Assembly (NCBI RefSeq): GCF_044324785.1
Contig: NZ_CP172128.1
Direction: 5' to 3' (one strand)
From: Escherichia coli
Lineage (GTDB): Bacteria; Pseudomonadota; Gammaproteobacteria; Enterobacterales; Enterobacteriaceae
Length of the DNA: 64,000 nt
A program made the position numbers. Positions 15,001 through 30,000 of the stretch are shown here, in pieces (the stretch's first letter is position 1; each line of letters opens with the position of its first letter).

Positions 15001-18000
15001 TGCCAAGGGCTTTTGCCTCCGGGCTGCGCGCGATCACACAGCCATCGTTATTGCTGAGTACGATGACCGGTTCGTTGCGAAGGTCCGGGCGGAAAACTTT
15101 TTCACATGAGGCGTAGAAACTGTTGATATCAGCCAGTGCAAACATCAGCGTAACTCCCGCGTCCTGTGTATCACGTGAGTGACAACACCAAAAATACAGA
15201 TGTTTTCCGGATACAGTGTGCGGAACTCCGGGCTGTCTGAAACCGGCTCCAGTGCCGGGCGTGGGCGCAACAGCAGTCGTTTGACGGTGAACTCACCGTC
15301 GATCTCAGCGATAACGATGTCCCCGTGTTGTGGTTTTTCGGCCCTGTCCACTACCAGCAGATCACCATTCTGCACGCCAGCCTGGTTCATCGATTCACCG
15401 CTGGCGCGCAGAAAGAAGGTGGCTGCAGGTCTGCTGATGCAATAGCTGTTCAGATCCAGTTCCTGCTCAGCATAATCAGTGGCAGGCGAAGGAAAACCGG
15501 CCTGGCAACGATCGGCAAACAACGGTCGCACGTAACTGTCATCGCCTGAAGGGTCAGCCGGACGGTGATAAACGGTACTCATGCTGCAGGCAGCCAGCTG
15601 TCGTCCTGCCAGATTTCTTCCAGCAGAGACAGGATACGTTCTTTATCCTTGTCGTTGCGGGCTCCTGTGACAGATACAGACGGGGCGCTGCCCTGGTCTA
15701 TACGCAGCCAGATTTCCGGGTAGTGTGGTTTCAGACGTTGTTCGATTTCATTCTGTAGCGCCTGAAGTGTGCCTGATTTGAGGTTTTTGTGCTCTGGCGG
15801 TCGAAAAGAATTTCAATGCGGATCATGTTCTCATCTCCCTTTTCTATTGCTGTATGTATATACAGTATTCTAATAACTGAATCCACACACAGTCAAATGT
15901 CATTATTGTGACTAAAAAACGCTCAATTCTCTGAGGGTGTGGCTGTATGCCTGCTGTGGAGTGCTGTGTCCAGCTTATCCACAGCATTTTGTGCACGGTT
16001 CTGTGGACAAAATACCTGGTTACCCAGGCCGTGCCGGCACGTTAACCGGGCTGCATCCGATGCAAGTATGTCGCTGTCGCCGGCCTCCTCACCCGGTCAC
16101 GTTTCGTCGTTCCTCCTCCACGCGCTGCGGCTTCGGGGCCGCACCTGCATTCGTATGCGGTCGCCCGGTAACAGGTGCGGCACGGCCTGATGGAGGCCGC
16201 ATGTGAGAGGAGAATTCCCATGCCAAACTGGTGCTCGAATCGTATGTATTTTTCTGGTGAACCGGCACAGATCGCTGAGATTAAACGACTGGCCAGTGGT
16301 GCAGTCACACCGCTTTATCGCCGCGCCACAAATGAAGGTATTCAGCTGTTTCTGGCCGGAAGTGCCGGACTTCTGCAGACCACTGAAGATGTGCGGTTTG
16401 AACCATGCCCCGGACTGACGGCTGCCGGACGTGGTGTTGTATCTCCGGAGAATATAGCGTTCACCCGCTGGCTGACACACCTGCAGAACGGTGTACTGCT
16501 GGATGAGCAAAACTGCCTGATGCTGCATGAACTCTGGCTGCAGAGCGGTACTGGACAGCGTCGCTGGGAAGGATTACCGGACGATGTCAGGGATACCATC
16601 ACCGCACTTTTCACCGCAAAAAGAGGTGACTGGTGTGGCTTCTGGAGTAACGAGGATGTATCGGTGTGGTGGAACCGTCTGTGTGACAATGTACTGCCGG
16701 AAAAAACCATGCCGTTTGACCTGCTGACGGTTCTGCCGACCCGCCTTGATGTTGAAGTGAATGGCTTCAACGGTGGTGTTCTGAACGGTGTTCCTTCTGC
16801 ATATCACTGGTATACAGAACTGTATGGTGTGAAGTGGCCTTGTGGGTATGACCTGAATATCAGCAGTCAGGGGGAAAACTTCATTCAGGTGGATTTCGAC
16901 ACGCCGTGGTGTCAGCCGGAAAGCGACGTTATTGCAGCATTAAGCCGCCGTTTCAGCTGCACGCTGGAGCACTGGTATGCCGAACAGGGCTGTGATTTCT
17001 GTGGCTGGCAGTTGTATGAGCGCGGAGAGCTTGTTGATGTGCTGTGGGGGGAACTGGAATGGTCTTCCCCGACAGATGACGATGAGCTGCCGGAAGTCAC
17101 CGGACCTGCGTGGATAGTCGACAATGTGGCGCATTATGGCGGATGAAGTATGACGGAGACGGGCGGGAAACCGCCCGTTTCTTTTCCGACAAAGGATGTC
17201 GCCGGCGGCTCCGCTTTACCCGGCCATGCGGGGCATGGCCTTGTGGGTTTTCAACTCTGTAGCCTCAGCGTCGTGTGCGGGCTGTGCCGTGCCTCCATCG
17301 TAGCCGGGCTTCTGCGGGCGGGTTGCAAGGTAAGGTGAACCGCTGCGGTCACCCGGTCCCTCCTTCCCGTCTGCCGTGATTTTCCGGTCGTTCACCCGCT
17401 CAGATTTCGCGGTCTCACCCTCCAACTCCCGTCAGCCGTGTGCGTCAGGCTGCGGCTTCCCTTGCGCCCTTGCAACCCTGCAGGCCCGGCAAAGATGGAG
17501 GCACGGCACCGCCCGGTGTCGCGGAATATGTGAACAACGGAGGAAAACATCATGCAATATGCGAAACCTGTCACTCTGAATGTTGAAGAGTGCGACCGTC
17601 TCTCCTTTCTGCCTTACCTGTTTGGCAACGATTTTCTGTATGCCGAGGCGTATGTGTACGCGCTGGCGCAAAAAATGATGCCGGAATATCAGGGAGGCTT
17701 CTGGCACTTCATCCGCCTGCCGGACGGTGGCGGTTACATGATGCCGGATGGCGACCGTTTCCACATGGTGAACGGTGCAAACTGGTTTGACCGTACCGTG
17801 AGTGCTGATGCCTGCGGCATCATTCTGACTTCCCTTGTGATTAACCGCCAGTTGTGGCTGTACCACGACAGCGGGGATGCGGGACTGACACACCTTTACC
17901 GGATGCGCGATGCGCAGTTGTGGAGCCACATCGAATTTCACCCCGAATGCAATGCGATTTACGCGGCACTGGACTGATTAACGGACGGGGCGGCGATGCC

Positions 18001-27000: not shown

Positions 27001-30000
27001 ACAGCATGAACTGGCTGGACTGTTTTGAGGATCCGGCGCTTGCGGCTAAAATATACACAAAGCCGTTTCCGCTGGTTGATATCACTGTCGTTGATGACAA
27101 TGAAATCATGAACCATCGCCGGATGGCCGCACTGACGCTGCTGATGAAGCATATCCGCCATCGTGACATGATGGAGCTGCTGGACAAACTCCCGCAGGTC
27201 ATGGTGGAAATTTCAGACGAGCAGGTGCGTGTTCTGATTCATTACATCGTTAACGCAGGGGACTCTGTATCACCGGAATTTATGCGGGCGCTGGCTGAGC
27301 GTCTGCCGCAGCATGAGGATAAACTGATGACTATTGCCGAACGTCTTGAGCAGCAAGGAATACAGAAAGGAATACAGCAGGGAATACAGCAGGGAATACA
27401 GCAGGGAATACAGCAGGGAATACAGCAGGGAATACAGAAAGGCCGCATGGAGGAGAAGCAGGATATTGCGCGTCAGCTTCAGAAAACGGGAATGCCATCT
27501 GCACAAATCTGTCAGATCACCGGACTTTCCGAAGCTGAACTGAAGAACATCACTCACTGATGAGAACCACAAAGCCCGGCAAAATGCCGGGTTTTTTTGT
27601 CAGCAGGAGCAGAGCAAACAGCATGACGATTGCAGAACGTCTTGAGCAAAAAGGTCGCCAGGAAGGAGCGCTTGAAAAAGCCCTGGCCATTGCGTGCCAG
27701 CTTCAGAAAATGGGGATGACGCCGGAGCAGATTAAGCAGGCTACCGGACTGTCCGAAGCTGAACTGAAAAAAATCATTCACTGATGAGAGCATCACAGCC
27801 CGGCAGAATGCCGGGCTTTTTTGCCAGCAGGGGCAGAGCAGTATGACTATTGCAGAACGTCTTATACAGAAAGGTTTCGACGAGGGTTTTAAACAAGGTT
27901 TTAAACAAGGGGCTCTTGAAGTGGCGCGGGAAATAGCCTGCCGGCTGCGGGATATAGGCTGGCCGCCGGAACGGATTCAGGAGGTCACGGGACTTTCCGG
28001 TGAAGAACTGAAAAAGCTGTTTCCTGATGAGCAGTAGCCTGGCATTCAGCCAGGCTGTGAATCACCGCTCACACATCCTCTGCCGTTTCCCCCAGTTCAT
28101 TTTCCAGTCGCCTGATGATATCTGCCTTACGCATCCCCTGCATGTGAGGCAGCAGGTCACGGACTGAAAGAGCCTGGGTGGTCCTCCAGACGGTGACGTC
28201 CACCTGTTCCGCATTTTCCCAGGCGTGCCATGTTCTCTGCGTCACGCCAAATTCTCTGGCCGCTTTTTCGCGTGACCAGAGCATGCTTTTTCGCCAGATT
28301 CGCAGTTCCCAGCCGGTCATAAAACACCTTTGAAAAAGTGAAAAAACTTCACTTTATTTTATCATCATAATCATCAAATCAGCGCGATAAATAAGTGTAA
28401 AAAAATGAAGAAATTTCACTTTTTTTTGCTTGTAAATGTCGTGCGGTTTTCTCTGTTTTCACCTGTGCGGGAGTGGTGTGCCAGTGACCACCACATGCCA
28501 TTGTTGTGCCGTCGTTTTTCTTCAGTCGCGCCGTATGCGGCGCTCCCTGCACACCTTACGGTGTGTAAGGCCACTGCGCCTGATGGCGCAGCTGTCTCTG
28601 CCTGTCTGCCGCCGCACTGCGGCCTGTTCTCCGCAGACGGACTTTCCGGGGGTACATACATGACCACATCCCGTTTCAGTCGTCCAGGGGAGAGATGTAC
28701 CAGCCACAAAACTTTTTGCCGCAGGCGTCAAAAACTTTTGCGTCTGCCCCCGGACAACTGCCCCGTGACGTGGTGAGCGTCCCCCGTCGGAAAGGTCCAC
28801 TGCGGGGAAATCCCCGAAGACCCGGACGGCAGAAGGAGCTTCGCTCCTCCGGGAAATGACCTGGCTGACCCGGCAGTCGTGACGATGAGGAGACAATGTG
28901 ATGAATCAGACTTTACCCACTGCTGACCTGAATACTGCCGGCACGACAGATGTTATTCCGTCTGTGGCTATCGACCGCATCATCGCGCAGCGTAACGAAG
29001 GTATTGCACTGTTCATGCAGGCGATGGAATGCCTGGCGACAGCGCGCAAGATTCTGCTCGATGCGTCAGGTGATATTTTTCTTTACGGGTTTGAAGACTG
29101 CGTGACTGATTCCGTTCGTCGCATAGATAAACCGGAAGAAGCGAAAAGGAATATCACCCGTCTTGCCGACCGGAAAATCTGGGAGCGCCTGATGACAGAT
29201 ACGGGCATGTACACCTTCATGAGTTCATGCCAGCGTGATGAGTGGAACAGCCAGCTGATGAGCGACACCTGTCCTGAAATCACCCTGGACAATGTACTGG
29301 CAACATTCCGCCATCTGAATGCCTGCAAGATGCAGACATTTGAACAGGGACTGATTGATGTCTACCGGAAATTGTCATGGGATTACAGAACCAATAATCC
29401 CTGCCGTCTGGGTAAGAAAATCATTATTGAAAACCTGCTGTACCGCTGGAGTAACGGGCGTGTGACGCTGGACTGCAGCGGACGGGAGGCACTGGATGAC
29501 CTGGTACGTCCGTTTTATCTGCTGGAGGGGCGCAACGTTCCTGACTTCAGGAACAGCATCGGGGCGCAGTATGGTGAATTTCTCGGGAACGGCGACAATG
29601 TCGGTAAGCTGTTAGAAGGGGAATATTTTACGGTGCGTGGCTACCAGAAAGGGACCGTACACATTGTCTTTAATCGTTCTGACCTTGTTGAAAAACTGAA
29701 TGATATTATTGCACGGCATTATCCAGGTGTATTGCCGCCACGAGTCTGATTAAACAGAAAAGCCCTGGTATTTATGCCGGGGCTTTTTTTTCTGTAATCA
29801 TCATAATCTCAGAACACGATGTGACATTGTCACATCAATTGTTGTTCATATCGATGCCATCTTTCCTGCCTGAATCTGTCTTTTTAGGTGCTGTTTTAGA
29901 GGAAGAACGGCGGGATGGTTTTTTCGATTCTGCTTCCCGAATAATGTCACGAAGTGCCTTCTCTCCTACTTCATACCCTGCATTTTTGAGCGTGTCACGA

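Follow-up and report, generated by a model that had tools for sequence, protein, structure and literature searches.

A leading-region island of an I-complex Escherichia coli plasmid with conserved single-stranded DNA hairpin repeats and a misnamed gene family

We analysed a stretch of 64,000 nucleotides of Escherichia coli DNA (contig NZ_CP172128.1; "the window" below), focusing on positions 15937–29749, a run of genes beside a plasmid origin of transfer (oriT) that an earlier note on this DNA had described as a leading-region island concentrating anti-restriction and anti-SOS genes. That description held: KlcA/ArdB, ArdA, PsiB, PsiA, and SSB are all encoded in the interval, and umuDC bounds it. 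Very probably, it is the ordinary leading region, that is, an anti-defence and establishment island, of an I-complex E. coli conjugative plasmid, expressed early from hairpin promoters in single-stranded DNA (ssDNA). Its architecture is that of the leading regions of pESBL-EA11 (IncI1, NC_018659.1; pESBL hereafter), R64, and ColIb-P9, and half of it is common to F. Gene content, orientation, repeats, hairpin-forming potential, and orthology to experimentally studied plasmids were established directly.

More than 5000 plasmid records matched the interval. The E. coli plasmid pLH10-b-1-A, typed as IncK2/Z, MOBP, and MPF_I, was 99.9% identical to it over its full length, and the full 64-kb window was colinear with this plasmid except for insertion sequence (IS) differences. 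The distal boundary of the island is formed by umuDC (13874–15582, minus strand), umuCD being the usual boundary of leading-region islands (Samuel 2024). On the right flank, a small minus-strand mobC/yggA-like gene is followed by the oriT core and then by nikA and the relaxase gene nikB, which together span 30403–33449; the island lies at lower coordinates, i.e., on the leading side of oriT. The boundary genes, the oriT core, the known genes, and two of the operons were located as follows, with klcA/ardB, ssb, the ParB-like gene, psiB, psiA, and ardA all on the plus strand, as the earlier note had it (Hp numbers are those of the pESBL orthologues).

13874–15145 and 15145–15582, minus: umuC-like Y-family polymerase gene and umuD (annotation of the 99.9% identical plasmid)
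17552–18634, plus: klcA/ardB operon, encoding KlcA, a weak-DUF1380 protein (Hp12), and a 63-aa protein (Hp13)
17552–17977, plus: klcA/ardB (Pfam Antirestrict, 1e-25; PHROG anti-restriction, 2e-19)
19404–24042, plus: ssb operon, with ssb and the genes for DUF905, HerB, PsiB, PsiA, and YgaA
19404–19931, plus: ssb
20286–22244, plus: herB/yfjB, ParB-like (ParB_N, 4.6e-7; HTH_ParB, 5.8e-8)
22296–22733, plus: psiB
22730–23449, plus: psiA
24508–25008, plus: ardA, anti-restriction DNA mimic (98% identical to pESBL ArdA; annotated as ArdA in the near-identical plasmid)
30309–30358, minus: oriT core, a nick-region-like motif with an inverted repeat (from the sequence; position relative to nikA/nikB matching the pESBL oriT annotation)

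The oriT had been placed at about 30.3 kb, and there, upstream of the nikA start at 30403, a nick-region-like motif (CACATCCTG/TCCCG) was found on the minus strand at about 30309–30321, adjoined by an inverted repeat at 30322–30358. The motif resembles the IncI/IncP nick region, a similarity that serves as a lead and not as a test. The oriT of pESBL is annotated directly upstream of nikA, in the same relative position. Since motif and inverted repeat lie on the minus strand at a position agreeing with the pESBL oriT, the minus strand is the nicked, transferred strand (T-strand). The claim that all genes of the island share one orientation was true for all but one: a conserved helix-turn-helix (HTH) gene at 28069–28320 had been overlooked on the minus strand. 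For the other genes within 15937–29749, all on the plus strand, the transferred minus strand is the template. According to this arrangement, the relaxase would nick the minus strand at oriT (about 30.31 kb), and the strand would enter the recipient 5'-first toward lower coordinates, with the DUF4942 gene first and the DUF1281 gene last, serving as template for nearly all the island genes.

The large intergenic gaps of the island consisted of two repeat families, one with two copies (upstream of klcA and ardA) and the other with three (upstream of ssb, of a gene for a 144-aa protein, and of the DUF4942 gene). The promoter classes given in Wen 2025 are class 1 (ssi1-3/Frpo), class 2 (klcA and ardA), and class 3 (M.EcoGIX), and the hairpins of the window are listed here with these names.

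17184–17526, minus: class 2 hairpin upstream of klcA (343 nt, folding free energy (dG) −94.6; 88% identical to the klcA promoter regions of pESBL and F)
24160–24479, minus: class 2 hairpin upstream of ardA (320 nt, dG −87.8; 88.6% identical to pESBL)
18876–19395, minus: class 1 (Frpo/ssi-type) hairpin upstream of ssb (fold z −11; 98% identical to pESBL)
25036–25714, minus: class 1 hairpin upstream of the 144-aa gene (fold z −11, and −10.6 in 25400–25699; 94% identical to pESBL)
28593–28895, minus: class 1 hairpin upstream of the DUF4942 gene (303 nt, dG −82; z −11.9 in 28550–28849; 98% identical to pESBL)
15980–16219, minus: candidate hairpin upstream of the DUF1281 gene (arms 16025–16051 and 16163–16189; 97.8% identical to pESBL; promoter status uncertain)

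The two class 2 hairpins, each of about 330 nt, were 92–94% identical to each other. The class 1 copies, long imperfect stem-loops on the T-strand with fold z-scores of −9.3 to −11, shared segments of 68–90 nt (77–94% identical) with two regions of F, one preceding ssb and the other the oriT-proximal genes. When folded as T-strand DNA, the five promoter gaps gave z-scores of −4.9 to −11, against −0.2 (ssb) and 0.1 (psiA) in coding controls, and a sliding-window fold scan picked the same five gaps plus oriT. All five were 88–98% identical to their pESBL counterparts, and by this homology five of the six Wen promoters, three of class 1 and two of class 2, are conserved here. A search of 13–33 kb against Rfam at E ≤ 0.1 returned nothing, neither hok/sok nor any other known RNA; ssDNA promoters are not represented in that database. 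These large repeated hairpins, the regulatory core of the region, had been absent from the earlier note. In addition, minus-strand open reading frames (ORFs) at 18825–19283, 25125–25622, and 28522–28896 lie entirely within the three class 1 repeats. The sequence they share stems only from the recurrence of the repeat, so none of them is likely to be a gene, although the reference plasmid has a hypothetical protein annotated for one.

The case for early expression comes from published experiments on the relatives of this plasmid. RNA sequencing (RNA-seq) of pESBL 15 min after mating revealed six leading-region operons induced up to about 500-fold, each preceded by a hairpin, with matching start sites in 5' rapid amplification of cDNA ends (Wen 2025). 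In addition, an Frpo hairpin holds back synthesis of the complementary strand until it is resolved by UvrD, and the burst lasts longer as a result (2026 preprint). By the mechanism we propose, the long imperfect hairpins of the single strand would serve host RNA polymerase as promoters before the complementary strand is made, giving a transient burst from five operons (klcA-Hp12-Hp13; ssb-DUF905-herB-psiB-psiA-ygaA; ardA; Hp16-Hp17-rpnLS-rpnS; and DUF4942), and conversion to double-stranded DNA would then erase the hairpin promoters and stop expression. Among the products with known roles, ArdA and KlcA block restriction, PsiB together with SSB blocks SOS induction, and HerB reprograms host transcription, while RpnL/RpnS would act as a toxin-antitoxin nuclease defence module.

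Several points weigh against this interpretation. Transcription from ssDNA and early induction would apply here by analogy with published work on 88–98% identical sequences, and the assignment of operons to promoters follows synteny and the available text of Wen 2025. Inside the hairpins, no convincing −35/−10 elements could be assigned by eye, and a double-stranded promoter scan, uninformative in this respect, gave none; that canonical double-stranded sigma-70 sites are almost absent from the plus strand upstream of the operons counts in favour of the ssDNA promoters. A herB coding control (20440–20900) also folded well, with z-scores of −4.4 to −5.6, so the fold z-score alone is not specific. 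The hairpin upstream of the DUF1281 gene is weaker (z −3.3 over 240 nt, −5.5 over 637 nt), and, as far as the available text of Wen 2025 goes, DUF1281/Hp8 probably lies outside the six induced pESBL operons. This hairpin was also considered as a Wen class 3 promoter and dropped, as the pESBL gap upstream of M.EcoGIX folds more strongly (z −6.35). Finally, in transposon sequencing of pESBL, neither maintenance nor transfer into E. coli K-12 required Hp8 or any of Hp12–Hp22, and no orthologue had a transfer phenotype in the K-12 mating (Yamaichi 2014). Such dispensability in K-12 is expected of conditional anti-defence genes and neither supports nor refutes that role. For the pESBL orthologues, the refuting outcomes named in the earlier note have in part been tested: the operons are strongly induced within 15 min, and transposon insertions leave maintenance and transfer into K-12 intact.

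Comparison with named plasmids placed the island within known variation. The gene order from umuDC to oriT/nikAB is that of pESBL and, by extension, of R64 and ColIb-P9, with an 85–100% identical pESBL orthologue for every ORF (Hp8, KlcA, Hp12–17, and Hp19–22). Missing from the window is a pESBL block of about 2.5 kb with Hp9, Hp10, Hp11, the gene for the ssDNA methyltransferase M.EcoGIX, and what is probably the class 3 promoter. At the deletion junction (17147–17217; compared with positions 2399–5010 of segment L004), the first 70 nt or so of the pESBL gap upstream of M.EcoGIX are kept and are followed by the klcA promoter. As the junction falls in a short sequence present at the base of both elements, that of class 3 and that of class 2, recombination between the two is suggested. 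Further differences from pESBL are the lack of Hp18, a different C-terminal (GIQQ)7 RpnS domain in Rpn, a NikA of only 66% identity, and an IncK2/Z replicon type.

The distal half of the island (DUF1281 to psiA) was also found in F, with klcA, DUF1380, the 63-aa gene, ssb, DUF905, herB, psiB, and psiA shared at 64–100% identity and a class 2 promoter in the Frpo1/Frpo2 leading region 88–89% identical. In contrast, F carries hok/flm, a 95-aa gene, and a DUF932 gene near oriT, lacks ardA, YgaA, Hp16, Hp17, rpn, the HTH gene, and DUF4942 there, and has a MOBF instead of a MOBP relaxase. The M.EcoGIX block is missing from the window relative to F as well as to pESBL. With the islands described by Samuel 2024 (Nature), the region shares the oriT–umuCD bounds, the T-strand gene orientation, the Frpo-type promoters, and the mixture of anti-restriction, anti-SOS, SSB, toxin-antitoxin, and uncharacterised families; no categorical difference was found, the copy in the window having no anti-CRISPR gene or orphan methyltransferase.

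The eight uncharacterised ORFs that had been listed for the region exist on the plus strand, although for one of them the start given (26257) is out of frame, the coding sequence being 26267–26533. Seven are given here, and DUF4942 (28901–29749) further below.

16220–17146, plus: DUF1281 + DUF1281_C protein (Hp8; YubB/Api92 family; Pfam 2.8e-49 and 6.7e-15; PDB 2IJR, 5e-51)
18024–18443, plus: weak-DUF1380 protein (Hp12; Pfam DUF1380, 1.9e-3)
18443–18634, plus: 63-aa protein (Hp13; 100% identical in pESBL and F)
19983–20222, plus: DUF905 protein (Hp14/YfjA-like; Pfam DUF905; PDB 2HJJ, 8e-22)
23446–24042, plus: YgaA (Hp15; overlaps the psiA stop)
25740–26174, plus: 144-aa protein (Hp16), mislabelled "PndC", the first gene behind a class 1 ssDNA promoter
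26267–26533, plus: 88-aa protein (Hp17; 94% identical to pESBL; ratio of non-synonymous to synonymous substitution rates (dN/dS) 0.37)

To call these ORFs orphans, as had been done, is not appropriate. Four match Pfam domains of unknown function (DUF1281 with DUF1281_C, DUF905, DUF4942, and weakly DUF1380), two of them with solved relatives, and pESBL carries 85–100% identical orthologues in the same order; nor is any of them a fragment of a housekeeping gene, which the earlier note had allowed for. The profile and structure-based searches that it had suggested were productive for the four Pfam families and for 2IJR and 2HJJ, and PDB sequence searches gave nothing for the DUF4942, 144-aa, YgaA, or DUF1380-like proteins. 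NCBIfam and PADLOC had no meaningful match for any uncharacterised gene, none matched a PHROG family annotated as anti-defence (the sole annotated match being that of DUF4942 to a DNA methyltransferase family), and no functional study turned up when the literature was searched by DUF name. YgaA had no Pfam or PDB match and a narrow distribution in the profile, PDB, and protein searches, and Hp17 had no family match in NCBIfam, PHROG, PADLOC, or Pfam. Paralogy of the 63-aa and 88-aa proteins, with each other or with other small leading-region proteins, was tested and rejected.

The dN/dS values against the pESBL orthologues were between 0 and 0.6 for every uncharacterised ORF, with small counts, so all of them look like real genes. 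The DUF1281 protein, which contains both DUF1281 and the ferredoxin-like domain DUF1281_C, was 97% identical to Hp8 with a dN/dS of 0.13; the 63-aa gene showed seven synonymous and no non-synonymous changes; and YgaA was weakly constrained (dN/dS 0.60, on only 17 differences). In F, the DUF1281 gene is frameshifted (two tblastn pieces of 92–94% identity; segment L005, 3856–4778), and this split copy makes it dispensable in at least one well-studied plasmid. The DUF1281, weak-DUF1380, 63-aa, DUF905, YgaA, Hp16, Hp17, and DUF4942 genes are very probably real, selected accessory genes, which by analogy with pESBL would be expressed early. The earlier note had gone further, taking each orphan as a candidate anti-defence factor. 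As a hypothesis this is already published: leading regions are described as anti-defence islands, and of their most prevalent families one third is said to be uncharacterised, with a probable link to anti-defence, with DUF905, DUF1380, "PndC", DUF4942, DUF1281, and Rpn among the largest enriched families (Samuel 2024, and Supplementary Table 1 therein). As a rule for every gene it is over-general, the ParB-like protein being HerB, rpn a toxin-antitoxin module, and the HTH gene a probable regulator. The individual uncharacterised genes are candidates for an anti-defence role.

The 144-aa protein deserves separate treatment. Databases name it "post-segregation killing protein PndC", an identity that we rejected: the Rfam search of 13–33 kb gave no hok/sok element in the island. 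Two full-length sok antitoxin RNAs were found at 51473–51629 (Rfam 123 bits) and 52193–52350 (120 bits), where they mark the real hok/sok (pnd-type) loci of the plasmid at a distance of about 25 kb from the 144-aa gene. Moreover, the curated annotation of pESBL has PndC/PndA elsewhere and calls the 144-aa orthologue "Hp16". The absence of hok/sok from the island, the distance of the real sok genes, and the pESBL annotation together identify the name as an annotation error.

Word-indexed protein searches with the 144-aa and YgaA proteins gave only close relatives. An exhaustive search, in contrast, revealed for the 144-aa protein a family of 1934 clusters (at 50% identity) at E ≤ 1e-3, without a matching Pfam family, with the motifs YCHwDGYP, GH, and YGRDRGE and near-invariant residues Thr3, Tyr20, His22, His66, Tyr79, Arg81, and Asp82. 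The AlphaFold 2 (AF2) model was very confident (predicted local distance difference test, pLDDT, 96.3; predicted template modelling score, pTM, 0.90). It had no fold neighbour in the PDB, and Foldseek against the AlphaFold database (AFDB) recovered proteins of many bacterial phyla, of an archaeon, and of viral metagenomes, all of them uncharacterised. In a small, non-quantitative sample of other elements, homologues lie in arrays of small co-oriented genes, next to ArdC, to DUF4942 with SIR2 and RadC, to a methyltransferase with RtcB, or to DUF932. One of these, on a 58.5-kb JGI metagenome contig (segment L008, 6001–8467), is a distant homologue 1.5 kb from a DUF4942 gene in a co-oriented array of small genes with SIR2 and RadC; this proximity indicates that two leading-region families co-occur in an unrelated element. 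That the 144-aa protein is a new kind of early-acting enzyme or binder directed against host defence, for example one that destroys or sequesters an immune signal or modifies a host factor, is a tentative and rather doubtful proposal. If true, a very large Pfam-less family spread over bacteria, archaea, and viruses would gain in it a founding characterised member.

The remaining uncharacterised ORF is the first T-strand-templated gene to enter the recipient.

28901–29749, plus: DUF4942 protein (Hp22; YdiA/YgfB family; Pfam DUF4942)

It aligns to the N-terminal half of a 548-aa phage methyltransferase family in PHROG. Its frequent label as an S-adenosylmethionine (SAM)-dependent DNA methyltransferase was rejected, as the predicted model has no Rossmann-like methyltransferase fold; DUF4942 is probably an accessory rather than a catalytic domain.

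If not directed against defence, the uncharacterised genes may mostly help the plasmid to establish itself or manipulate the host, by processing DNA, priming replication, or relieving metabolic or fitness cost, and would share their early expression with the anti-defence genes for one and the same kinetic reason; we consider this quite possible. The ParB-like protein is 95.9% identical over 652 aa to F YfjB, renamed HerB, a CTP-binding, DNA-clamping protein that reprograms host transcription and offsets the cost of plasmid acquisition (preprint PMC13370423, 2026); judged by this identity, it is a host reprogrammer and not a defence blocker. Strand conversion, too, involves SSB and the ssDNA promoters, and neither the PADLOC and PHROG searches, which left the uncharacterised genes without meaningful or anti-defence matches, nor the DUF4942 model, which is not a methyltransferase fold, speak for anti-defence. 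On the other hand, leading regions are statistically enriched for anti-defence genes and for several of these very families, Hp16-family homologues lie beside ArdC, DUF4942, SIR2, and DUF932 genes in unrelated elements, and the lack of a phenotype in K-12, which is poor in defences, is what conditional anti-defence genes would show. As a separate observation, a part of the herB coding sequence (20440–20900) folds unusually well on the T-strand (z −4.35 over 461 nt, −5.4 and −5.6 in 300-nt windows), its fold being branched and thus unlike the single long hairpins of the promoters.

In another interpretation, several uncharacterised genes play no part in entry. They would be cargo of a selfish or competitive kind, such as modules for addiction, defence, or toxin-antitoxin functions, or else neutral passengers retained through linkage to the conserved backbone. 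Support for it comes, among other things, from the Rpn module.

26598–28037, plus: Rpn module, with RpnL (26598–27560; Pfam Transposase_31 (YhgA-like), 3.3e-78) and two stand-alone rpnS-like genes
27623–27784 (annotated from 27560) and 27843–28037, plus: stand-alone rpnS-like genes (RpnS alignment)

Zhong 2023 (PNAS) described RpnL/RpnS as an intragenic toxin-antitoxin defence system, with a small protein made from an internal Met, variable four-residue repeats 8–20 residues after it, and optional stand-alone rpnS genes. The module of the window resembles it. RpnL has an N-terminal YhgA-like PD-(D/E)XK nuclease domain (the Transposase_31 match), the internal RpnS starts at M244 (nt 27327) as a C-terminal small protein, followed by a (GIQQ)n 12-nt repeat at 27351–27440, and extra rpnS genes lie downstream. 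The repeat tracts, which begin about 10 residues after the Met, differ in length: the internal copy has seven GIQ[QK] units, the 27623 copy a single unit, and the 27843 copy three GF[DK][EQ] units. For the ORF annotated from 27560, the most likely start is 27623, as the first 21 annotated codons align to DNA that is intergenic in the following repeat unit. Against the solved structure of RpnA-S, only a marginal match was obtained (E 0.07), as expected for a hypervariable domain. Unlike the system of Zhong 2023, the module lies inside an ssDNA-promoter operon of a leading region. As the 27623 copy resembles the internal RpnS of pESBL, Rpn seems here to have gained a new C-terminal domain, the old one being kept as a separate gene. 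The module is thus predicted to be an RpnL/RpnS toxin-antitoxin anti-phage system, toxicity and neutralisation being assigned by analogy, and its surplus stand-alone RpnS might neutralise the non-cognate RpnL of recipients or rival plasmids, i.e., act as orphan antitoxins in anti-defence.

Besides this module, with its hypervariable four-residue repeats and extra rpnS genes, the cargo interpretation is favoured by the non-essentiality of all the orthologues in transposon sequencing, by a content that varies among relatives (the M.EcoGIX block and Hp18 absent here, DUF1281 a pseudogene in F), and by the weak constraint on YgaA. Nevertheless, we consider it unlikely as an account of the uncharacterised genes: each operon lies directly behind a dedicated ssDNA promoter and in T-strand orientation, purifying selection is evident, for example in the 63-aa gene, and few families with specific enrichment in the leading regions of thousands of plasmids are larger than these. 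Finally, it is very improbable that GC-rich repeat DNA produced some of the eight listed ORFs by chance. Such an origin applies instead to the minus-strand "hypothetical proteins" overlapping the class 1 hairpins and to the 27560 start, whereas for the eight the evidence of family matches (Pfam or PHROG), solved structures, confidently predicted AF2 models, synteny, and dN/dS values under 1 points to real genes.

Within the anti-defence and establishment island, one gene departs from the common orientation.

28069–28320, minus: HTH regulator (Hp21; Pfam HTH_31, 1.2e-4; 100% identical to pESBL)

Immediately upstream of it, an AT-rich inverted repeat (28333–28358 and 28399–28424, within 28321–28440) is a possible operator or divergent promoter region. 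The gene is probably a regulator, and, as a minus-strand gene cannot be read from the incoming strand and has this inverted repeat upstream, we infer that it acts late. By its strand and its position near oriT, it would fit Samuel family 22, a minus-orientation HTH family of Supplementary Table 1 of that paper. Elsewhere in the window, the other Rfam matches above the gathering score were a STAXI RNA, an AgrB antisense RNA, and two ALIL pseudoknots, at 38366–38523 (minus), 48194–48283 (minus), 234–350 (plus), and 34702–34788 (plus), respectively; the ALIL element is the frameshift signal of IS3-family insertion sequences.

In conclusion, the literature already contains the concept and the gene list for this locus, as well as an early-expression experiment and a knockout screen, and the window adds another backbone variant. 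What is new is that the label "PndC" is wrong on a Pfam-less family of about 1,900 clusters with no fold neighbour in the PDB and that the predicted model of DUF4942 has no methyltransferase fold. As a natural M.EcoGIX-deletion variant, the plasmid can be compared with its pESBL-like relatives for transfer into restriction-proficient hosts. The widely propagated name "PndC" should be dropped for the Hp16 family, whose high-confidence model without a recognisable fold makes it worth testing. Leading regions decide the survival of resistance plasmids in the first minutes in a new host, so their uncharacterised genes are sensible targets, and the residual value of this island lies in its individual uncharacterised families, above all that of Hp16.

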